Part shown: one piece after another, positions 41,894 through 57,964 of the stretch
How the letters are laid out: every line of letters begins with the position of its first letter
Numbering within the stretch: the first letter of the stretch is position 1
DNA from: Chiloscyllium plagiosum
Lineage: Eukaryota
NCBI RefSeq assembly: GCF_004010195.1
Contig: NC_057752.1
Coordinates: forward strand, 11,317,160-11,381,159
Reading direction: 5' to 3'
Length of the DNA: 64,000 bases
Notes under the pieces: generated by a model
Told to the model about the DNA's origin: nothing
Databases searched by the model: none
Seen by the model: the letters and a program-made list of their open reading frames with translations, nothing else
Translations under genes and position numbers: made by a program

Positions 41894-41942
41894 AAATGGA
41901 TCCCCTCATCATCAGCCTGACCCGGTTCCTGCAAGCACTGAT
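41894..41942 (+). CDS. TFCP2: TFCP2 exon 9 equivalent, 49 nt
   Basis: atttcag| ... GAT|gtaagt; (G)NGSPHHQPDPVPASTD; follows an 87-nt intron. Confidence 0.92.
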
Positions 41943-43159
41943 GTAAGTGTTCTTGTTTTCCAGCATTATTCATAAATCTATCCTGCTCAATGCAATAACA
42001 TGAGAATATTGTGTCTGAAAGAATCATAGAAACTTGCATCAAAGGAGGAAGCTCGCTGTGGATTTTCAGCAGATCAGTTATGCTTGTTGACTTATGTTTG
42101 TTTTTATCTGAAACCCTCTTAGTTCCTCAGTTCAACTACCTGGGCCATCTCCGTTCTAAAGTAATTTCTGAAATCAGCTTTAAATATCTTTTTCACACAA
42201 AGTGCTCCAGATCCTGATGACTCTGGTGGGAGGAATGTAATTCTCATTTCCCTCCAGCTCTTTTTTCCAGTGATTTTGAATCTGTGATCTCCAGTTATTG
42301 ACTCATTTGCCAGAGCGAATGTAATTTCCTTACTTACTCGATCAAAACAGTTTTTCATCTTAACCTCTCTTAGGTCGCTTCTTGTCCTCCTCTATTCCAA
42401 GAAAAAGACTCCTTCCCTTTCTTCCCCCAGCCAGCGTCCTTTGTGCCTGTGGACATCCTGCCAAACCAACTCTGTATTCTTTATGAATGCCTTTACAAAG
42501 AAAGGCAGGACTGGTACTAAATATTCCTGGATGGAAGTTGTTCAGGAAGAAAAAGAAACCTAGCAATAATAATTTAAGGAGAATGTTACAGTGATAGAGA
42601 GAGGATGCCCTGAAGGGCCATGGCTGAAATCTATTTGGTTAGAGTGAAGAAACAATAGAGGTGCCATTACATTACTCAGTGTATTCTTATAAGTCAACAA
42701 GTTATAAAGAGAAATTGCTGGAGAAACTCACCATCTCTGGCAGCATCTGTGGAGAAAAGCAACATTAACATTTCTGGTCTGGTGACATTCCTTCAGAAGT
42801 AAATTTTGTAATCCCTATAAATCTCTCTCTGGCAGTGAAGTGTAAATTTCTTGTGCTTTGCCCATGCAGAGTAAGTTGAGAGGTAATGTTCAGTTTTCCT
42901 TTGGCTGACTTAGTTATCTGGCTATTTTCTCCAAATGACATAAAAGAATGCCTTCCTATATTATACCGTCCAAAGGATGTGGTCCTCCTTGTATTTCTAC
43001 TAAATCTAAATGTTCCTGCTGGTATTTCAGCTCTCTCTGCCTTCCTAGATTTAGCAAAGGGTTTCACCACCAGCTTAGTTGTCAATTCAATTAAATTTTG
43101 GGAATGTTGACTTGTGGAAATTCATTAAGACGGACCAGGACAATTCTGCTTCCTCATTG

Positions 43160-43700
43160 TACAGTACAGAAGAGGCTCTTTGGCCCATGGAGTCTGTGCT
43201 GATAGAAATTACTCCAAATCTACACTATTTCCACTTCCCAGCATTTGCCCACAGCATTGAACATTGTGACATTTCAAGTGCTCATTTAAGTACTGCTAAA
43301 ATGAAGCCTCAACTACCCTCCCAGGCAGTACATTGCAGATTTCTACCATTTTCTGGTTGAAAAAGATTTCCTCAAATCCCCTTAAAAACTTCCTGCCTTT
43401 CATGTGAAGATTATGCTCCTTTGTTATTAACCCTTCAACAAAGTGGAACTGCTGCTTTCTATCTCTCTACATGTCTTGCATAATTGAATACATCTCAATC
43501 AGGCCCCCCTCAGCCTTTTCTGCTCTTTTTTTAAAAAAAAAACAACCTGCGCCTATCCAGTCCCTCTTCATAGCTGAAGTGCTCCATCCCAGGTGACATC
43601 CTGGTGAATCCCCTCTGCACCCGCTCCAGTGCTAGCACATCCCTTTTACAGAGCAATGACCAAAAAATACATACAGTACTCCAGATGTGGCCTCACCACA
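43160..43700 (-). mobile_element. Degenerate CR1 3' fragment
   Basis: Reverse-complement similarity to the other CR1 3' ends in the window. Confidence 0.65.
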
Positions 43701-44210
43701 GTTTTGTGCTGCTTTGTACTCCTGTAAGGAAATTGTAAAAGATTCCTGTCACTTCTTATTTGTAGTACAGATTTGGGGTTTTCTTTTACCTTTATCTCCA
43801 AGTATTGCCAAACCCAAATTCATGTTGTCACTGTTCCACATTAATGTTAGCCAAGAGCCCCCGGTCTCTTGTTAAGTCTGACTTCTGAAAGTGCGCTGAT
43901 GTTTCAATCTCCGTTATTCCTGGTGTCTTCACAAAAGTTGAAAATGTAATTAAAGCACGTAAAGTCCCCAATTTATTTATCTGATAGACTAACAAAGCTA
44001 ATGGGAAACACTGACCAGGTTTTCGTTTATAACGAGAATCGCTATTTATTACAATTCTGTAAATTTTCAATACAGATAAACAAACTCAAGCTATCAACAT
44101 ATGACTTTAGTAGTTGAAACTGTAACTCTTTTTAAAATCTTTTGTGCGTGTGTACACCAACAAAAAGTATTGGCATTATGAGTAGAGGAAAATTACTGGG
44201 GAGAAATAAA

Positions 44211-44555
44211 ATCACAGAATCCCTACAGTGTGGGAACAGGCCATTCGGCCCAACAAGTCCACATCGACCCTCTGAAGAATAACCCACCCAGACCCATTCC
44301 CCTACCTTATTACTCTACATTTACTCCTGACGAATGCACCTAGCCTACACAATCCTGAACACTGTGGGCAATTTAGCATGGATGATTCACCTAACCTATA
44401 TATCTTTCGGATTGTGGGCAGAAACCGGAGCACCCAGAGGAAACCCACACAGACTCAGGGAGAATGTGCAAATTCCACACAGATGGGCACCTGAGGCTGC
44501 AATCGAACCTGGGTCCCTGGTGCTGTGAGGCAGCAGTGCTAACCACTGAGCTACC
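44211..44555 (-). mobile_element. HE1-like SINE
   Basis: Matches 2472-2773 over most of its length. Confidence 0.82.
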
Positions 44556-45089
44556 TCCAAGCCATGTGCCATCCTGGCTTGGAAATATGTTGCTAGGTCA
44601 AAATCCTAGAACTCCTCCCTTACAGCATTGTACATTGGATTGCAGCAGCTAAATAAGAGAGCTCAACACCACCTTCTCTAGGGAAATTAGGGATGTGCAA
44701 GAAATGCTGGCTTAGCCAGCAGGTCCCTCAAAAGAACGCTAAGAAAGTGACAATGCTGAATCAGAAAGTCCTGGATACTGGTCTCCTGCACAATGACAGA
44801 TCAGGGTTGTCAGCTTCGGTTCAAAATCAGAAGCCTTTCCTCTGGTGCAGAGGAGTCCAAGATGAGGAGTAGCGGTGTTAAAGTGAATGTCGCACCATGT
44901 AGGGGGGTAATGTCAACAAACACCTTTGCAGACAAAGGTTAGTAGAAATTGAGAATTCTTTTTCCCCCCGATTGGAGGTTTTGAAGACTGACATTTCGGC
45001 GTTGTTCTTCAGGGATACAGGACAAAGGTGGGCAAATTTGTGAGGCCCAGATCAGCCACGATTTGATAGAATGCCAGAGAACAGAACAG

Positions 45090-45675
45090 CCTTGAAGGTT
45101 TGAGTTATATAAAGAGGCTGGGGCCTTTTACACTGGAGCATAGGAAATTGAGGGGTGACTTTACAGAAGTTTATAAAATCATGAGGGGCATGGATAAGGT
45201 GAAATGTTAAAAAGGGCATGATGGGCAATTTTTACAAATTCTTTAGAGTGGTGTGTATGTGTAGAATGAACTTCCAGAGGAAGTGGTGGATATGGGTACA
45301 ACATTTAAAATATTTTTGGATAAGTTTGATTAGACTAGATTAGATTCCACACTGTGGAAACAGGCCCTTCGACCCAACAAGTCCACACCAACGCTCCGAA
45401 GAGCACCCCACCCAAGACCATTCCCCTACATTTACCCCTGACTAATGCACCGAACACTACGGGCAATTTAGCACAGCCAATTCACCTAACCTGCACTGGA
45501 CTGTGGGAGGAAACCGGAGCACCCAGAGGAAACCCACACGGACACGAGTTCATGAGCAAGAAATGTTTGGAGGAATATGAGCCAAGCAAAACAAGTGGGA
45601 TTAGTTTAGTTTGGGGTTGTGATCAGCATGGATTGGTTGGACCGAAGGGCCTGTTTCCGTGCTGTACGACTGTAT
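45090..45675 (+). mobile_element. CR1 3' fragment with nested partial HE1-like SINE (45330-45546, -)
   Basis: LRGDFTEVYKIMRGMDKV motif; SINE tail ttagactagattagatt. Confidence 0.75.
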
Positions 45676-47279
45676 GAATGGCTGTTGCCTGGTTTTAACA
45701 TTTTGATTGTATTAATACAATATTTTGATGGGCAGGACAGCATTCTAACCTGCAACATTATCTAGTCATCTGTGCGTCATTGTGCTCAGATCCTCTTGGC
45801 TCCCCATCTCCATCCAGTTGAAGCTGGTGTGGGCGCAGTACATACCATGGCCATGGGGGCTTCTGGTGTGGGTGCAGTACGTACCATGGCCATGGGCGCC
45901 TGTGTGCAGTGAAAGGTCCAGTAGAAAGGCATGCAGGATAACACGCTCCTCAAACTGATGCTGAGCAGGTTCCAAGCTCGCTCACAGCTGAAGCCAGGAA
46001 GGGGATCCCTGCCTCCACCTCGCAACACAGGGCCCACGTCCTCAAGGAGGTACCAGCAGAACGCTGTTACTGGCGCCTCCAGCCTAGCACCAGTCTAAAG
46101 GCTTCAATGAGATGTGTTCCTTTCTCTTCCTAAGACCACCTATTCTCTGCTTTTGTTCATTCCAGACTCTCAGCTCTTTGACAAGGATCCAGGGGATTTA
46201 TGGACTAATTGTCCAATTTCACATTCACTGTTTAGAGGCAACACCTTCCCACGGGTGGGAGTCATTAACTGACCGCTTTCAAGCTCAAGTTACTTTGCTG
46301 CAGACAGAATAAAGACAGACCCTGCTTCTTCCAAACTAACCATTTCTTGCTACCCCCAACATTTATACACACAGCTGTTCAGTTGCCTGCAATCCAATCA
46401 GAGAGCTGCTATGAAGGTGATACCTCTGGTGTCCACAAGTGGTCACAGTTGCACCCACCAAACAGTAATCTGTTGCTGGCTGAATCTTTGTTTGTGCATA
46501 TATCCTGGTGCCATGCCATCTCATCTCATCTCATCTCATCTCTCCTCCCCTTTTGCTTGTGGAACAGCAGTGTAAATATAATTCACAATGAGTCCAGTGA
46601 CTTGTTTTTAAAGTGCAGCATTTTGTTTCCCAATCCTTGGTTTTGATAGTCCTTTTCCCATTTTAGTCTACAATTAAAAATGTAGAAAAGTAAATAGATG
46701 CAATCTTTATGCTGGATAAGGACAGCAGATTTTCTTCACTTTTTTGCTCACTTTTTTAATTTCAAGTTTATTTATTTAATTAGACTTAAATGCTCCTGTG
46801 ACATACTAGGATTTTAACTTTTTCCTTTTCCTTTCTCATGGGATGAGTATGCCTTGGCAAGCCCAGCATTTGTCCATCTTTAACTGGCCTGGGGAGGTGA
46901 TAAAGTCCTCTCTTGAGCTGTTGCAGTCCATTTGGTCTTGGTGCACTCACAGTGGTGTTAGGGAGGGAGTTGCAGGATTTTTTTAAAAAAGTGTGCAGTG
47001 TAGGTTCTGCTGGCTAGGCCAATGTTTATTTTTAAAGTGCTGTTAAGAGCCAGCGACGTTGCTGTGGGTCTGAAATCACATGTAGGCTAGACAAGGTAAG
47101 GATGGCAGTTTCCTTCTTGAAAGGACATGAGTGAACCAGATGGGTTTTTCCAACAATTGACCATGGTTTCATGGTCATCATTGGGCTATTAATTCCAGGT
47201 ATTCCACCATCTGCCATTGTGGAATTTGAACCCGCGTCCCCAGAACATTAGCTGTATTTTATTTTGATAGCTAGGCCAT

Positions 47280-48280
47280 CAGTAACAATGAGGGTGGTGT
47301 GTGGCTTGGAGGAGAACATGGTAGTCTTCCAATGCATCTGTTGCCCAACCCCAATATCCTGTGACTGAGATGACTGACCTCCAAGGACCCACAATTATCT
47401 TCAGTTGTACTCTAACCATTTCCCCCAATTCCAGTTCTCTCCAGTTTAGCTAACGCTCCTTGATGCCACGATCAAATTTGACCTTGATGTCAAGAGCAGT
47501 AACTCTCACTTCAGTTCTGGAGTTAACTACTTTTGTCCATGTTTTGACTAATGCTGTAATGACATGAGGAGCTGCATGGGCCTGGCAGAACCTAAAATAA
47601 GTGGCAGTGAGCAAGTGATTGCCTTGTCGGTTTTGCTTGATTGTACTACCAACAAAACATTCGATTAATTTGCTCATGATTTAGTGTAGACTAACGCAGT
47701 AATTTGTCTGAATTGGATTTGACCTACTTTCCCCTAGTAGATGCAAGGGGACAGGCAACTGCATTGCAACTTGGCTAAAGGTGTAGCTAGTTTTGGAGTG
47801 CAGGTCTGTTACTGGGATATCGTCAGGGCCTATAGCCTTTGCAGTGTCAAGTGCCTGTAGTGTTTTCTTGATATGTGATGAGTCAAATTGACAGAACCCA
47901 TCTGTGATGCTGGAGAGCTTAATAGTAGACTAGTACGGGTCATTTACCCGTGATCTTATAGCTGAAGATGGCTTTACAAGCTTTGACCTAGCTTTTCAAG
48001 TTTCTCCATAATTTCGATGGACATGTTTGTGGAGCTGCCTCCTCCAGTTTGTTCTGAGGGCTGAACTAGACATATTTTTAATCAATAAGAAAATCAAGGA
48101 TTACAGGGCTAAGGCAGGACAGTGGAGTTGAGAATTATCAGAGAAGACATGATCCAAATTACCTGCTTCTGCTCCAAATCTTATTGTTTTATTATCCACC
48201 TCCATTCATGACTGGGAATGACAGGGTTCTGAGCCATTGTTCCTGATCTCCCTTTGTTCCATCTGTTGTGTGCTGCTTCA
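47280..48280 (-). mobile_element. Degenerate LINE RT fragment (second family)
   Basis: APHVITALVKTWTKVVNSRTEVRVTALDIKVKFDR. Confidence 0.65.
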
Positions 48281-49414
48281 CTGTTTAACATGTATGCCTC
48301 TAGATCATTAAATCTGTAATGTAACCACATCTGTGTCTGTTCATTAAACTTCCAGGGCACCTTTTACTTTAAAAGGAATATACCTAGATTGTGTCTAAAT
48401 TATTACCATCCTCAATGGGTTGATGGCTCTTTACGCTTTTCCCTAAATCACCTTTCCAACCTCCTTTAAATCATTTCATGGAATTAATTCTAACCCTGTT
48501 GACTTTGTTTTGCATGTTGTTTTTTCTGATCTCATTGCCATAATTATTATAAACAAAATTCTGTTCTTGTCCCTGCTATCCAGCTGATCTCCTTTTGGTC
48601 TCCGGACCAGATCTAGATCCAATGTTCTTGCTTTTTGGATGGGAGGCATAGTAGTCAAGAAAGTCTTCCGTGTGAATCAAAATTTCTCCCCCTCAATACA
48701 CTTTACACTATTTTCTTCCACTCCTACTGTTGCTATTTTTGTTTTTTGCTGCATATCATTGACATTTATTCCTCTCTCTCCATGATCTTTGGAACTCCAA
48801 TTTTTTTTCAAAAATCTACCAATAAAACTGCTCAGCCCCTCTTCTTGTAGTCAAGTCAAACAGGTTCAGTCACGGATCCAACTGTAAATCATTTCTATTC
48901 TTCCAGCGGTGTTTGAAAATGTGGAGTAAACAGATTAGCTATGATCTTATTGAATAGGCTTCAAGCAGCTGTAATAGTAGCATCGCCTTTAATCAATAAT
49001 GCCTTGTCCCCTCCTTATTTTGCTTCTCTATATTGTTGCTGCTCATTGGTGACCAGGCATATTAAATTTCTGCCCGCAGCTAACCAAACTTCTTACTTAA
49101 ATTACAAGCAAGAATAGCAAAGGAGGTATTAAATTCTATTTCTTCAATCTGGTTCCTGTATATTTTCTGAATATTTTTAACTTTGCTACATTTTTTAACC
49201 CTCTGTCCTTTGACCTAATTTCTGCTTTCTGGTTCTCCTTCCCCTGTGAAATTATTTAAACTATTAGTTAACCTCTCAGCGAAAATATTTCAATTGAACA
49301 ATGCCTGGATCGATCTGCTCATCTTAGACAGTTGCCCTTCTGCCGGACTGGTCTGAAATCCTCCCTCCTGCAGTGCTTGTCCAGCCCCACATTTGCTTGC
49401 GTAATCATCTTGTT

Positions 49415-49642
49415 GGAACAAATTACTGCAGATGCTGGAATCTGCACTAAAAACAAAAAGTGCTGGGGATCATGATTGGTCAGGCAGCATCCATGGAGAG
49501 AAAGCAAGCTAATGTTTTGAGTCTAGATCATTCATCAGAGTTGAAGTGAATTGAGCTCTAACGAAGAGTCCTCTACATTCAACATTAGCTTGCTTTCTCT
49601 CCATGGGTGCTGCCTGACCCGCTGAGATCTCCAGAATTTTTT
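49415..49642. mobile_element. PLE-derived hairpin element with decayed hammerhead motifs
   Basis: ggcagcatccatggagagaaagcaagctaatgtt vs aacattagcttgctttctctccatgggtgctgcc; gtaatcatc direct repeats flank. Confidence 0.72.
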
Positions 49643-50034
49643 GTAATCATCCTGGTTAATGTCCTAGAGCAATTTGAATTTATATGTACTGGATATTTAA
49701 CCCCTGCCATCTCCCCTCCCTCTCCCCCCCCACCCACCTTGCTTGCGCTCTCTTCTCTCTCTCTTTTCCCCCACCCCAATAGTGCGTTGACAACTCACTT
49801 TTGTTTGTAAGATTGTGGTCACGCTTAATTGTTAGAAGATGATTATACTTTAAGTTCTTTACATATGAGCCTAGGTTTGCCCATATCCAATAAGTTTATT
49901 CGTGATTAGCCCTAATATGATTCAGATTTTGGGGCCACAGTTGGATCAAAATCTTTAGTTGAGCTTTGATACAGGTGCCCATGCTATTTGGCAGTGATTT
50001 TTGGTTTACAGTGGAGATTTCTGTGAAATCAAAT

Positions 50035-51690
50035 CTATTTGCCTGTGTTTGGTTCATATCCCTCCATACTTATATCCCATCCATGTATCTGTCCAAATGT
50101 TTCTTAAATGACAAAATTCTACTCCTCTCCACCACCTACCTCTGACAGCCTGTTTCAGACAGACGCCACCCTCAGTGGAAAAGAATGCCCACTGGATCCT
50201 TTTGTATCTCTCCCCTCTCAACTTAAACCTATGCCCTCTAGTTTTAGACTCCCCTGCCATGAGGAAAAACTGTTAGCTTATCTATGCCTCTCATGATTTT
50301 ATAGATGAGTATAAGGTCACCCGTCAGTCCCCGACACTCCAGGGAAAACCGCCCCAGCCTATCTAGCCTCTCCTTATAACTCAAACCTTCTAGTTCAGCA
50401 AGTGTCCTAATAAATCTTTTCTGCACTTTTTCTCGTTGAATAATATTCTTTCTGTCGAAAAGCGACCAGAATTACATGTAGAACTCCCTTATCAATGTCT
50501 TGTGCAGCTGCAATAAGATGTCCCAACTCAGTGCTCTGACAAATGAAAGCAAGCATGCTGAAAGCTGCTTTCACCACCCTGTTTACCCATCACTCTATTT
50601 GCAAGGAGCTATGACCCTGAAACCCCAGATGTCTTCATTCTATAACATTCCATAGGGCCCTACCATTAACTGTGTGAGTCCTGCCCTGGTTTGACCTACC
50701 AAAATGCAACACCCTACATTTATCTAAATTAAACTCCATTAACCATTCCTCAGCCCACTGGCCCACTTGACCAATATCTTGTTGCTTTCCAAGATAACCA
50801 CCTTCACTGTACACTATACCATCAATCGTGGTGTCATCCACAAACTTACTTACCATACCTCCTGAATTCTCATCCAAACTAGTCATATAAATGACAAATA
50901 ACAGTAGACCCAGCACTAATTTCTGTGGCATACTACAGGTCACAGGTTTCCTGTCTGAAAAAATACCCTCTATGACCACCCTCTGTCTTCTACATTAAAG
51001 ACAATTTTATATCCAATTGACTAGCTGTCTCTGGATTCCATGACATTTAACCTTACTCGACAATCTACCATGTTGTACCTTGTCAAAAGCCTTGCTGAAG
51101 TCCATGAAGAGAATGTCTACTGCACTGCCCTCATCTATTTTCTTGATCACCCCTTGAAAAAAACTCAGATTCGTGAGACACTATTTTCCACGCACAAAAC
51201 CATGCTGACTATCCCAAGTGCATCCTTGCTTCTCCAAATACCTGTCGATCCTGTCTCTGAGAATCTCCTCTAAGACGACCACGCAGACATTGGGCTCACC
51301 AGTCTGTAGTTCACAGGCCTTTCCCTGCAGCCTTTCCTAAATAATGATACAACATTGGCCACCGTCCAATCTTCAGACACTTCACCTGATCATGGCTGAT
51401 ATTTTCTCAATCCCATTTTCCTGTCTTTACCCCATTACCTTTGATCCTCTTACTCATCACAAACCTGTCTGTCTCTGTCTTAAATATGCTCAATAACTTG
51501 ACCTCCACAGCCTTCCTCGACAATTACTTCCACAGATTAACCACCTCTGGCTGAAGCAATTTCTCCTCATCTCTAATGGAAACAGCTTCTCCACCTCTGC
51601 TCTATCCAAGCCTCTTAGTATTCTGTAAGTTTCAATCAGATCACCAAGTACAAGTGCAGAGTCCTCAACTGCTCCTCATATGACAATTAT
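50035..51690 (-). mobile_element. CR1 LINE ORF2 fragments
   Basis: LGLLLFVIY..SKFVDDTTIDG..WLMEFNLDKCRVLHFG; QKRFIRTLAELEGLSYKERL. Confidence 0.88.
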
Positions 51691-54218
51691 AAATCAAAGA
51701 GCACTTGATGTAATCCCAGTGTGTTATGTAGAAGTTGGTATTGAAATGTTTGCATCTTCCATATTCTATTTTTTTCCAGCTCTGTCCTCTTGGTCCAATT
51801 TAACTTGTACGTATGTGCATATGATATATTTCAGTGTTTAATAGGTCTTCAGATGCTGATGGGGTCCTTTTGAGATGGAAAAGTGTGGAAGGAATGTGCA
51901 TCACACTTGGTCAGTTCCTCAAAGCTAGCAGGTGCAAACATGCAACTGCAGAGTGACCTTTTCCCTCAACTGGAGTTTGCTTCTGTTGGAAAAAAAATGA
52001 GAGGCTGAAAGTGAATGTTTTTGAAGAGAGTGAGAGCTGTTACCATCATCTCAAACTTTTCAATTATTTCAGGCAGGAATTTCTCCCCCCTCAGTAAAAT
52101 AGGGAACAAGAATCCAGAACAAGTTTGAAAATCAAACACCACCACTTAGGTATGAGTCCTGAAGGAGATAGTCTCCATCAGTTTGAGAATGTGGTGCGCT
52201 GCTGCAGAAAGCCATAGAAACAAATTAATGGTATTTAAAATAGACTGAGGTACTCATCCATTCATAACAGGTTTAAAGTGATATGCTTCCTACCTCTGCA
52301 AATGATTGAGATGTCACACTTGACTCTTAACTAAGCCAGTATTACAAAATGACTTGTCTGACAGTGGAAATTAGCGTTAAGTCACCTTGCTGCAGTCCAC
52401 TTAATAAATTGATAGCTAAGCAACAGGTCTGTAATACTGCATAGAGTTTATTTTAAATTGACTAATCTGCTTGCTTTCAACACTTTGGATCAGTCTGTTC
52501 AGAGATGTTATGACACACCTCTGGAGCAGGTGGGACTTCTTATGCAGCAGTAGAGACACCACCACTTCCACAGAGCACTCCAGCCTAATTTATTATTGGA
52601 AATTGGAATGGGAACCTTACCATGGAGTCCAGATAAACCTGAAAACTGCTGTAACCAGGAAAATCCTGGTTAGACAAAAAAATTAGGAAGCAGATTTGGG
52701 AAAAGATTTGTTAATCCACGAAAGGCCCACAAAAGCAATATTGGCCAAACTGTACCAGAACACCCAGAATTCCTGAGCAGCTCTCAAACTGAATCAGACA
52801 GCACGCAGACAAGGGAATACACCTTCAGCTCCCTTAAGCACCACAGATATCTCCAAAGTCCTAAGGGCAGTTTCACAACCCAGCAATACCAAAACACCAC
52901 AAAGAGCAGGACAGACAGGCACCAGCAAGGACATGCTCCAGGAACAGGACAATGGAAGCACCTCACCACTTCAGAGGAGACATTAACACCTACCTGTGAA
53001 GCTGAATGGAACCATGATACTGTCAGGATGTTGCATTGTGTGAAGGAACAGGACATTCATCTGATAAACTGTTTTACAATTAACATCCTTGCAACTAAAT
53101 TATTCAATTTCCAGAAACATTGTAGTTTCCCATTTCTTAATCAGTGTCATTGTGCAGCATTACTATAAAACTGGTCTCATCCTTGGCTCTGGGATGAGAA
53201 ATTCTGATCTACCTGTACAGACTGTCAGTTCTGTGTTAGCCTAGTCAATTTCTCTTCCAGTGATATAGCTTGCAATAAACTGTTTGTCAATTTCACTTCC
53301 AGCTGTGTTTTGTGATCTCTAACCTATTGGGCAAATTTCTCCGACAGCAGACTAGTGCTATTTGCTCCTAAGCTTAAGGTTTTATTAGCAGTCAACCAAT
53401 AGCAGTGCAAGTGTTCATTCTTTGGGATTCTTAAGCCTAGGTTTTTGTCCACCCAAGCTTTCTCTCTTAGACCGATATCCCACTTACACAAGTCCAGTGT
53501 AGAAAGAAACTACCTATGGCAATTTTTTTAGTGCTTTTGCTTGAAAACTTTAGTCATGTTGATAGTTTGCATGTGCTGAGCATTTGCACTAGCCAAGGAA
53601 AACCATCTAATCTGCTTTGTGTTTAGATGATTCCAGTAGCCATGAAATGTTCTGCCAGCACTGTGTGGCAGGATGTTTTTCAGATTTATACTCGAGTCGT
53701 GGCCTTGTGTTTTCCTCATTGTGATGAGAAAAGTCTGTCACCTTAAAATAAAGAGTTTGAGGCATAATCGCATTTTAACTCTTAAATCTATTGCAGGTGT
53801 TGACCTTGGATTAGGATGTAAGTTTTTAATCTCGCTTGATCTGGGGCAGTACTCAGAGTGCAGTGCAGCACTATTATAAGCTGTTAAAAAGTTAGCCCGT
53901 GTCTGCCTTGTTCAGGTGGGTTTGAAACATCTAGGGTACTGCGTGCAGGAGAACATTAGGTTAACCTAGTTATTCTTGCATTTGCGTTTGTGGTCTCCGC
54001 GCAAAAACAGCTGTAACTTTCACCTGGAGAATGACCAGTGTGCCTCAAAGTAATTAATTGTATGTAGAGAACTGAGATATAATAAATCTTGAGTATAAAG
54101 TGTGCATGTCCGATTGCTTTAATGACTAGTGTAATTCTTTTTTGAAAATGTGCTTGGGAGCAACTGATATAGAACTGCATTCTAGGTATCTGCTCTGTCA
54201 TAGATGTCTGATTCTTTC

Positions 54219-54575
54219 AGTGGCAGCGTTCTTGTCTTTGAGCCTGTAGGTTGTGGGTTGAAGCCTCATTCCAGGAGTCAGGAGCACATAACATAGGACG
54301 GCACTTCAATTAGTACTGGTGGAGTGAAGCCTTTCAGTCGAACGATTAAACTGAATCCCTGTTTCCCTGTGCAAGTGGGTGCAAATGCTTCCTTGCATAT
54401 TTGAAGAGCAAAGAGTTCTCCTGGTGTCCTGGTCATCACTTTTCCTCAAACAATACCAGCAAAATAGTTTGAATACTTATTGCATGTGCTGCTTGTGGTT
54501 GGTACCTTGCTGAGCGCAAATTGCTGCATTTGCTGATGTACATTTCAGAAGTAATTCAGTGTCTAAGTGCTTTCA
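54219..54575 (+). mobile_element. Old DeuSINE-like (SacSINE1/AmnSINE1-related) relic
   Basis: gaagagcaaagagttctcctggtgtcctgg...ttgctgagcgcaaattgctgcatttgc resembles the Deu domain as I recall it; related copies at about 57965-58330 and 58530-58920. Confidence 0.5.
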
Positions 54576-54875
54576 AATTTAAAAAGTTGCAAGTTGCCAT
54601 AAAATGCTATTTTTCTCTCTGCCTCTGACCTAATTGAATACAGTCCTAATCCAAAAATTTATTTTTTGTAAAGATGCCCCCAAGAATTTGTGCTGAGTCA
54701 GTAATTACTATTGTCCTGCTAATGGGAGAATTATTGAACTGATTATCCTATTTATTTGTCCACTCTCATTTCATTTCTCACACCAACGATAATTGGGATC
54801 TAAATTTGCATCAACTTCTCGATGGCTATTGGACGCTTTCAAAAAAATACCACTTCATGCTCTGTACAATTTCAG

Positions 54876-54908
54876 CTCAATAATTCTATTGAATTTTCAC
54901 TAGATTTG
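54876..54908 (+). CDS. TFCP2: Candidate alternative micro-exon of TFCP2, 33 nt (LNNSIEFSLDL)
   Basis: aatttcag| acceptor, consensus TTG|gtaagt donor, length divisible by 3, no stop in phase 0 (matches intron 9 phase); no transcript evidence. Confidence 0.5.
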
Positions 54909-55053
54909 GTAAGTGATTTTTTTTTTCTCATAAGATTTTTTGATTTCTTTCAATTTGTATACAAAGAAACTGTACATGCATGTGTACATGCATCCAAAGT
55001 GAAAATCACTTTTAGGTTTTTGCAGAAGTTCACAAGTAACTTTTTCTTGTCAG

Positions 55054-55119
55054 ACACTGGGAACCTTTCGCAAGTGGGCTTGTCGGGAACTGTCCGTGTC
55101 TCCCGTCTCCGAAAATCAG
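55054..55119 (+). CDS. TFCP2: Candidate alternative cassette exon of TFCP2, 66 nt (TLGTFRKWACRELSVSPVSENQ)
   Basis: taactttttcttgtcag| acceptor, CAG|gtaggg donor, 22 open codons in phase 0, GC/CpG-richer than flanks; no transcript evidence. Confidence 0.5.
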
Positions 55120-55635
55120 GTAGGGGCTTTTGTTGCCAAAGTGCAAACAGACTCAATTTTGAGAGTTACGTTTAATGTTGCCCACAAGCACTGCTCTGAA
55201 GTTGGAGAGAGACCTTTGACCCCTCAATTTTGAGCAATTTAGCAAATGGTCATGTGACCAGAAAAAAAACTGATTCAAGCTATTGCTATTTAAGTGGGAT
55301 TCCAATATATTTAATTATGACTTTTTTGATTTATCATTGTGGCAAAGGATTCCAGTTCTTTCACTCGCCAAATGTTGGGGTGAAGTAGCTAGTGTGGTGA
55401 TATGTTAAATTTTGTATGGAACAATATGGACTGTAGTTTTCCCCTAGTTCGATAGTGCACCAAATGGCTCAGCTTAGCATCAAGGAAAGTCACTGACACC
55501 CATTGGTATGTGTGACTGAGTGACTCCAGTGGAGTTTGCACTCATCTTAGCCAGCTCCTAATGTACTCTTGGGTCATTGTATCTGTGTGTACATTTCAGG
55601 GCTCATGTCTAAGACTTGCAACTTTATTTTTGCAG

Positions 55636-55729
55636 AATCTGTTGCCAACAGCCACACCTCAGGACGCTCAGCAGTGGTTGCACAGAAATCGATTTTCTCC
55701 ATACTGCAGGCTCTTCGCAAACTTCTCTG
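55636..55729 (+). CDS. TFCP2: TFCP2 exon 10 equivalent, 94 nt (start of SAM-like domain)
   Basis: tttttgcag| ... TCTG|gtacct; [31 protein letters not shown](G). Confidence 0.95.
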
Positions 55730-57964
55730 GTACCTTTTGCTTATTAACTTTTATTTGGGTGAAAATATTTAGCACAACTACCTGGGATGCAGGAATTGGT
55801 TGCAACACGTTCCTTTCATCTGGAGGATCTAGGTTTAGATTCAGTTGGGCAAGAAGAAGAAAGTCTTAGATCAAGGATCACCATGCTGCACTATGTTTGC
55901 AGCTTCTGCTAAGTTTCAGTAGTAAAATGCCCACAGCACCAACTTACCTTTTCCAATTTAATGTCAAGTTGCAGTGTTCAGTGGGATTTCAAGAGTGGCT
56001 TGTGTGGAAAATGGGCATGTTGCATTTCATTGCAGGTAAGCACCCCAATGAAGTCCAGATTATGAGGAGAAAGGACACTTGTTAAAGTGCCTGAGTGCCG
56101 CCTAGTAAGATTTTTGTTTAGAAAGGTGTCTAGCCATGGACTGCATAATATTGTCCAAATTGAAAAGAGTAGTGGAGACAAGTAGCTAATACCAAACTCT
56201 GCCTCTTCAAACTATAGGTTTTATTTGGAAGAAACAGTGGCTGAAGGGAAGAAAGGAATTTCAGCTTTAAAGTGAACCTCTGAAAGAATGAGTTTAGAGT
56301 AGATGTATTAGGTTCTAATTTAAACCTCATGAGTCTGAGAGGGGACAGTATAAGTAGTGCTTGGAGCTGAGAAGAGACTAAACCAATGTTGAGTGAACGG
56401 TGACATTAAGTGAGCGACCTGAAAGGTTAAGGTGGGATAGGGAATTAAAAGGCTTGATGTATGCGAAAAGATTTGTTTTCTGCACATTACCAGAAAAGGG
56501 GGAATTACATAGCTCTGGTAGCAGACAAGATGAGCTTAATTCGGACTGCAATTATTTCTTTCTAGACAGTGCGGAGACAAATATAGAAATACAAAATATT
56601 TTTAAGTGAACAGTTATAAGACGTCATCGACTGGAGAAATGTGATGACAATATTCAAAAAGGGTCAACAAGTCAGCAAAAATATTGAACTTTGGTTAGAT
56701 CATGTTTGTATTGTTATGCACAGTACATTTTTTTTAATATTGTAAATAAGGTACGGGCATAGTTTGAAAAAGCACAGAGCTTATGAAATTGATATCCAAA
56801 GTGCGGGTATACTGGTCATCAAGAAAACATAAAATGCAGAATAAAGGGGTGACTTAATAAAGATTTTTAAATGAGTGTTTGATAGTAAAGGCATAGAGAT
56901 GTTTCCATTTAATGGAGTAATCCAAAGCTCGGAGTCTCCAATATATAAAGACAAGATGGTCATTTTGAAACCAAAAGGGAATTTGGGAGAATGAGACTCC
57001 ATGTTCTTGCAAAGTATGAGATAAAATGATAACTTCTGTCCTACATCCCTCTATGATGCGAGGCGAAACTTCCTTGCCCAGAGAGTGGGCAAAATGTGGA
57101 ATTTAGTACCAAATGGAGCGGTTGAAGCAAATAGTGCAGACACATTAAAGATGTAGCTGTGGAACACATGAGGGAGACAAGAATAGGTTATGCTGGTAGG
57201 GTTGGATTGAAAGGAATGTTGGAGATTTGTATAAAATGTTAACATTACCATTGACTAGTTGGAATGAATGGCTGACATGTGCTGTACATTCTATGTAAAA
57301 CTATTCTACCTTCAATGGTTCACACAAGATTGTTGCTACAGGTTCTCTGAGCTCATCTAACTGCTAAACCGTCCTATCTACCAGTTTAGTTGAGTTTGTC
57401 TTGCTCTTGCCCATGATCCAGAGTGCCTCACATATTTGAGCATAATACTTGATGGTTTTGTAGAGAAAATGTTGTAATCTTTGGAGACACTTTGTCAGAA
57501 GAGATGTCAGTCAGGTCTTCTCTGCCTGTTCAGGTGGGTGATACTTGACACTCCAATGGTGTTGGAAGCAGACTACAAAGTAGCCACTATCCTAGCCAAA
57601 GTAGTTTCTCCAGCTAACACTACCAAAACATATTTTGTTTATTCATTTTGTCACGTGACACCTTCTGAAGTGAATGTGCGCAATTGCCTACATAACCAAC
57701 ATATTTCGAAAGTACGGAGTTGAATCAGTTGAATGTAATTTAGGTGCTGTATAAACTCAAGTTTTTATCCCATCTGATACAGAGACTCCAAGGTTTCCAA
57801 TGCTTTGGAAGAGCTCCCTGGTGTTGCCAGAGTTTTGTTGTGGCAGGGGTGGGTAGTTCAGGAAACTGCTTTTGCGTATTCTGCCAAAGAGAACTTTATT
57901 TTAAAAAGGTCTCTGTAGAGCTTGTTCGTGCATTTTGTGTCAACTTTGCACTACTATAAGCATC

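Follow-up and report, generated by a model that had tools for sequence, protein, structure and literature searches.

The 66-nt segment at positions 55054..55119 of the window (the whole 64,000-nt stretch of Chiloscyllium plagiosum DNA analysed here) is a real spliced coding exon of shark TFCP2. On the reading that we consider fairly probable, it also belongs to a low-copy repeat, known from eight intact copies, in which acceptor and donor come built in at a distance of 66 nt; the repeat is likely what remains of an extinct mobile element, dispersed before the lineages of sharks and chimaeras parted. An earlier sequence-only reading had proposed a spliced, frame-preserving coding exon at this place, which is borne out both by the junctions and by its retention in relatives; that the exon belongs to a dispersed family common to seven further unrelated genes goes beyond that proposal.

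The window covers most of the TFCP2 (LSF) gene on the plus strand, and a shark TFCP2 protein could be aligned to it exon by exon, with 92-100% identity for those exons that are cleanly bounded. The 66-nt exon (plus strand) encodes residues 323-344 of the 519-aa protein. It lies between an upstream constitutive exon (41894..41942, plus strand), which contains S309-Pro and ends in ...PVPASTD with a phase-0 donor, and a downstream constitutive exon (55636..55729, plus strand), where the SAM domain starts (NLLPTATPQ...). Recomputation reproduced the proposed length, the cag acceptor, the CAG/gtaggg donor (55120..55125, plus strand) and the 22 open codons, TLGTFRKWACRELSVSPVSENQ. The pyrimidine tract and CAG acceptor fall within 55029..55053 of the plus strand and, like the donor, are borne by the repeat, whose main unit, the region matching the eight-copy profile, spans 54998..55165 on the same strand. 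The taac motif proposed as branch-like is indeed present, but its adenine at 55039 is only 15 nt before the acceptor, and a yTnAy motif with A55032 (position -22) would be the likelier branch point. Likewise, the five CpGs noted in a CpG-poor intron were counted correctly, since the 13,693-nt host intron has a mean of 0.65 CpG per 66 nt and reaches 5 solely at this exon; they are, however, a feature of the TFCP2 copy alone, with 0-3 in each of the remaining seven. By a rough splice-site score of our own, no other AG..GT pair of the intron that is open and keeps the frame scores as well as the exon, while a slightly lower score admits two pairs (the 66-nt exon and a 33-nt neighbour) and a loose score five.

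Both junctions predicted for the exon, 41942 to 55054 and 55119 to 55636, were found joined in one contig of run X1, which carries the same species label. This contig (1286 nt, depth 20.6) contains the last 30 nt of the upstream exon up to 41942, then 55054-55119, and then a GT..AG joint to 55636. The RNA status of runs X1-X4 is a guess of the tool, with which the GT..AG joint in X1 agrees, and all four consist of assembled contigs, from which rare forms drop out. For the TFCP2 exons, X2 and X3 gave intronic contigs only, and about 2% of run X19 gave 0 reads, so that none of these three provided exon cover. At the protein level, a 43-residue query led to a single cluster, annotated as shark TFCP2 isoform X1. 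The peptide was present in all 17 chondrichthyan TFCP2 proteins examined from sharks, rays and chimaera (15 listed of the 41 cluster members, plus two chimaera proteins), with 19-21 of 22 residues identical to the window peptide in the seven orthologues compared, 19 of 22 in the chimaera Callorhinchus, and 22 of 22 in protein P0003. Among the best 120 of 378 homologues, it was absent from the 118 others. The RefSeq and UniRef isoforms of sharks, rays and chimaera that contain this exact exon are automatic predictions. A TFCP2 form lacking the 66-nt exon appeared in none of the 17 proteins, nor as a skip contig in run X1; its status as a cassette in TFCP2 is thus unproven, and here the exon looks constitutive or nearly so. 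A separate X1 contig, of depth 8.4, spans the SAM-start exon into the following intron (window 55702-55900), where the donor is a weak gtacct, and retention or slow splicing at that point is possible.

A second exon candidate of 33 nt (54876..54908, plus strand; peptide LNNSIEFSLDL) precedes the first by the 145-nt gap originally described. It occurs in four of the 17 chondrichthyan TFCP2 proteins, in every case accompanied by the 66-nt peptide, and is absent from contig X1. As for the suggested alternative module of 33, 66 or 99 nt, the 66- and 99-nt forms do exist in database models, but none of the 17 proteins has the 33-nt exon alone. This small exon lies inside what local alignment scores indicate to be a further tandem unit of this repeat, decayed and situated on the upstream side (approximately 54824..54963, plus strand). 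The stretch 230-90 nt upstream reached a mean local score of 40.0 against the eight repeat cores, a value attained by 0 of 1474 random stretches of the window and 0 of 1000 shuffles, albeit by a narrow margin (best random 38.9, best shuffle 38.8), and profile searches matched the unit weakly (E 0.18 and E 0.84). The 33-nt exon therefore probably arose from a second tandem unit, its gtaagt donor lying one unit upstream of the matching motif; both exons have one origin, and the argument that two adjacent candidates support each other independently does not hold.

Searching the same genome with the TFCP2 exon DNA retrieved two more copies, and a repeated search from those yielded 11 matches at 10 loci on nine contigs, a lower bound that did not rise with three additional DNA queries and a pattern search. 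Eight copies are intact, each with AG, 66 nt and GT and an exon free of indels. Apart from TFCP2, they are in sense orientation within introns of CNOT2 (C19, phase 1), PRKCE (C9, intron 2, phase 1), PTPN12-like (C23, phase 1), PUF60 (C3:99249467-99249532, phase 0), PPP2R5C (C10, phase 0), NUP98 (C6, phase 1) and TBC1D13 (C30, phase 0, with a weak gttggg donor). The CNOT2, PTPN12-like and NUP98 hosts were named by database match; PRKCE, PUF60, PPP2R5C and TBC1D13 are presumed identifications, made from human sequence motifs in the flanking exons. The C10 copy was at first assigned to intron 1 of DYNC1H1, until contig ends and a motif search placed it in the neighbouring PPP2R5C-like gene. In all eight intact copies acceptor and donor lie within the aligned homology, indicating that the splice sites are supplied by the repeat; the donor gtaggg is identical in five of the eight and its GT in all. 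Homology among the copies covers a short stretch of about 130-200 nt with the exon at its centre, the CNOT2 copy being nearest to the majority sequence (2 of 66 sites differ). An exon shared among TFCP2 paralogues was considered and discarded, as seven genome searches gave no family match on contigs C7, C4 and C33, nor was one present in the 3-kb loci there. These contigs carry paralogues of the SAM-start exon (C7:89768870, C4:108125906 and C33:8445258), which together with TFCP2 make four LSF-type genes; mammals have three. Beyond the genome, exact motif scans of viral and of metagenome contigs gave 0 and 0 matches, and a profile search of 1.84 billion representative proteins gave three, all of them unrelated repetitive proteins. 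Some contigs of run X4 (organism D) that align to the element in the PUF60 locus have flanks which differ from those of every known copy, and may represent orthologous or additional copies.

Six of the eight copies are spliced (TFCP2, CNOT2, PTPN12-like, NUP98, PUF60 and PPP2R5C), while splicing of the PRKCE and TBC1D13 copies has not been seen so far. Four of the six behave as in-or-out cassettes: among database isoforms, which are predictions, the exon is present in 13 and absent from 5 of 18 CNOT2 proteins, present in 13 and absent from 4 of 17 PTPN12-like proteins, and present in 8 and absent from 4 of 13 NUP98 proteins, the remaining one being a fragment. For PUF60, inclusion joints were found in three of the four runs (X1, X3 and X4) and skip ends in two (X1 and X3). 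Loose contig ends joined the CNOT2 copy to both of its neighbour exons and the C10 copy between two PPP2R5C exons. RBFOX-type GCATG motifs did not track with the inclusion pattern among the copies. Depending on the host, this DNA is translated in one or the other of two frames, and the resulting peptides are unrelated: the phase-0 hosts TFCP2, PUF60 and PPP2R5C read TLGxFRKW..., and the phase-1 hosts CNOT2, PTPN12-like and NUP98 read xTGFLSKMG.... All eight copies are open in the frame of their host, the copy with the fewest changes has no stop in any of the three frames, and the only two frame-0 stops in the family both belong to PTPN12-like, a host that reads the other frame. A profile of the phase-1 peptide selected 14 proteins out of 4370 candidates, all of them chondrichthyan PTPN12-like, CNOT2 or NUP98 and all with the 22 residues flanked precisely by the neighbour sequences expected; the CNOT2 peptide is identical in the chimaera (22 of 22). 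PTPN12-like proteins (P0167-P0177) show, independently, a second 22-residue in-or-out difference upstream (66 nt, L060:8984-9049), so that pairs of 811 and 833 aa arise by two routes; this second stretch does not match the family profile. The base changes of the PUF60 copy favour the frame that is not used. This copy presumably sits in the same intron as human PUF60 alternative exon 5, no motif of which was found in the 20-kb shark intron, and may reflect replacement, convergence or distant homology. PMC7408900, in the part available, concerns exon 5 of UBE2F and not PUF60's own exon.

These observations suggest the following sequence of events. The intact copies, which a mobile source with internal tandem units would have left, are all intronic and in sense orientation, one to each host gene, with AG, 66 nt and GT unchanged. 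In six of the eight the spliceosome uses the repeat-borne sites, and the exon fits introns of any phase, since 66 is divisible by three and the copy nearest to the original state can be read through in all frames. Insertions into flexible linkers were presumably tolerated because they fall outside the Pfam domains, as is the case in the four proteins scanned; purifying selection would have followed on splice sites and peptide, and other copies would have decayed past recognition. In TFCP2 the exon may finally have become the usual form, adding 22 residues to the linker that leads from the S291/S309 phosphorylation region to the SAM domain.

What selection has acted upon is the point at which this account can be weighed against the view that the element was kept for RNA-level reasons, either splice signals or structure, its peptide being a neutral spacer in every host. 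Column identity among the eight copies is 0.92 over positions -20 to -1, 0.86 over the exon and 0.86 over the following 10 nt, falling to 0.56-0.57 in the outer flanks, a fall to which indels contribute since the alignment was ungapped. Constraint on the splice sites is clear, and conservation of the splice flanks on a level with the exon is what the RNA-level view would expect. The TFCP2, CNOT2 and PRKCE copies, on the contrary, show a silent bias in their own frame: nine changes separate the TFCP2 copy from the majority sequence, of which five are silent in its own frame as against 1.5 in the second frame employed by the family. The signal pooled from all copies is modest: of 73 changes, 32 lie at host-frame third positions (binomial p = 0.04), yet when the frames were permuted among copies 11 of 70 arrangements did equally well, so that the permutation test is not significant, and the PUF60 copy runs against the trend (1 of 6 changes at third positions). 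The PUF60 exon piece in run X4 has moreover 0 differences, and the next exon 2 in 33 nt. Against an RNA-level role speak also the confinement of both frame-0 stops to a copy read in the other frame, and a weak consensus RNA fold with an unfavourable covariation term (+0.98). We hold constraint on the peptides to be probable and selection at the RNA level alone to be rather unlikely.

In TFCP2 the consequence is a longer linker, as had been proposed: sequence mapping and Pfam place the insert between S309, which lies 13 residues back, and the SAM domain, which follows directly. S291-Pro and S309-Pro, which the accessible part of PMC3471441 describes as ERK and cyclin C/CDK2 sites of LSF, are kept in the shark protein with the same numbering, and Pin1 is linked to regulation of the LSF phospho-region in what was seen of PMC9200292. 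The exon adds a Ser338-Pro in 16 of the 17 chondrichthyan TFCP2 proteins (Tyr-Pro in Heterodontus), and the serine, already present in the chimaera, is peculiar to TFCP2 among the eight copies; Ser338 is a plausible candidate kinase site. CDK sites carry a basic residue at +3 and ERK sites a proline at -2. It has been suggested that the exon is a regulated TFCP2 cassette (0, 33, 66 or 99 nt) which serves to add a Ser-Pro for proline-directed kinases. Its position close to S309 (for the regulation there, see the parts seen of PMC3471441 and PMC9200292), the gene-specific serine and the true cassette behaviour of sister copies would all suit this proposal, which we nevertheless find unlikely: the exon-less form is absent from the 17 proteins and from contig X1, Heterodontus has Tyr-Pro, and the motif is a minimal SP that has neither the CDK +3 basic residue nor the ERK -2 proline. 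Under the mobile-element reading, our best guess is that the linker extension tunes TFCP2 oligomerisation or partner binding, with Ser338-Pro perhaps acting as a kinase site. An AlphaFold2 model of shark TFCP2 (P0003; mean pLDDT 36) is uninformative on the insert, since only the SAM domain is confident. Ray-finned fish TFCP2 (P0019, P0029, P0033, P0034, P0063 and others) carries at this linker junction an insert of its own, about 14 residues long, whose likeness to the shark peptide is not above that of shuffles (260-2000 of 2000), and many tetrapod TFCP2 models have a 6-10 residue donor extension there; sequence is thus gained here time and again.

Concerning the source of the repeat, two of the 10 loci are donor-less and have tandem units about 130-140 nt apart. 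The best lead is the locus C9:98925473-98925973, with three tandem units; an MKKS-like coding end of that strand lies about 7-8 kb upstream of it. The second, at C2:140505902-140505992, is decayed and gives a hint of 143-nt periodicity. A Pfam scan of 66 of the 108 ORFs around these two loci gave four weak matches, one of them an MKKS-like end. Neither Rfam nor ARAGORN matched an RNA-derived head, as tRNA-, 5S- or 7SL-derived SINEs have it, in the 10 loci (0 and 0), although an old head could have decayed; of the marks of a DNA transposon or MITE, convincing terminal repeats, target-site duplications or shared flanking repeats were not found in five regions, a loss to be expected at such age, and genome DNA and pattern searches found no high-copy relative. 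A structured non-coding RNA such as a snoRNA or miRNA was rejected, given the lack of an Rfam match and the fold described above. That exon shuffling or retro-transduction instead spread an exon, flanks included, from some founder gene such as CNOT2 is improbable: short, exon-centred homology, the closeness of CNOT2 to the majority sequence, the very few copies and the missing transposon marks would agree with it, but two host frames mean that what moved was not a protein module, no bony-vertebrate protein was found with the peptide, donor-less tandem copies lie away from the host genes, one of them downstream of the MKKS-like coding end, and the tandem units at C9 suggest that the source was a repeat and not a gene. 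The repeat is therefore best taken as the likely remnant of an extinct mobile element that dispersed before the shark/chimaera split.

It is conceivable, if rather doubtful, that this one element seeded a splicing network of cartilaginous fish, a portable 66-nt any-frame exon under shared splice control in TFCP2, CNOT2, PUF60, NUP98, PP2A B56-gamma, PTPN12 and PKC-epsilon, switched in concert by tissue or stage; if true, this would be the counterpart of transposon-seeded enhancer networks. In any event the family amounts to a natural experiment on coding-exon birth, with the same 66 bases in eight unrelated genes, in two frames, kept since before the chimaera-shark split. It allows us to ask whether the host frame shapes later evolution, why the exon is the usual form in TFCP2 and optional elsewhere, and whether shared origin entails shared regulation, and it marks protein insertions in very conserved housekeeping regulators, found in cartilaginous fish only.

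Single exons of the family are already in database gene models, and the TFCP2 exon alone is ordinary: the predicted TFCP2 isoforms P0002-P0017 and P0178 contain the same exon, the automatic models being silent on its origin and on the sister exons. The multi-gene, two-frame chondrichthyan family itself appears to be undescribed, as titles and the starts of abstracts gave no description of a shared origin, nor did a look-up of terms in PMC12129022 and PMC9004415, although a repeat library or shark genome supplement could already list the element. Its nearest parallel is the set of LF-SINE-derived exons of tetrapods, reportedly described by Bejerano et al. in 2006. In both, one ancient repeat became exons of many unrelated genes, with few, conserved survivors. 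LF-SINE, as far as the text seen of PMC9148063 goes (see also PMC3698499), provided 19 coding exons, of which 16 are alternatively spliced and 11 contain an early stop, whereas all eight shark copies are open in the host frame at one length of 66 nt and in two frames; the shark family, compared here by description, belongs to cartilaginous fish, and neither SINE features nor a living parent were found for it. As in the exonisation of Alu, MIR and LINE sequences in mammals, the repeat brings ready or nearly ready splice sites that give rise to alternative exons, but those elements exist in huge copy numbers of which few exonise, in contrast to about 10 loci here, eight of them with intact splice sites (PMC7786948, in part). 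Like the L1 ORF1-derived exons, such as Lyosin in MYL4, the shark exons would be Palaeozoic, lineage-specific coding exons of mobile-element origin under purifying selection; unlike Lyosin, for which the portion seen of PMC12129022 indicates that a transposon protein was kept, the shark DNA is read in two frames, so that no transposon protein was co-opted.
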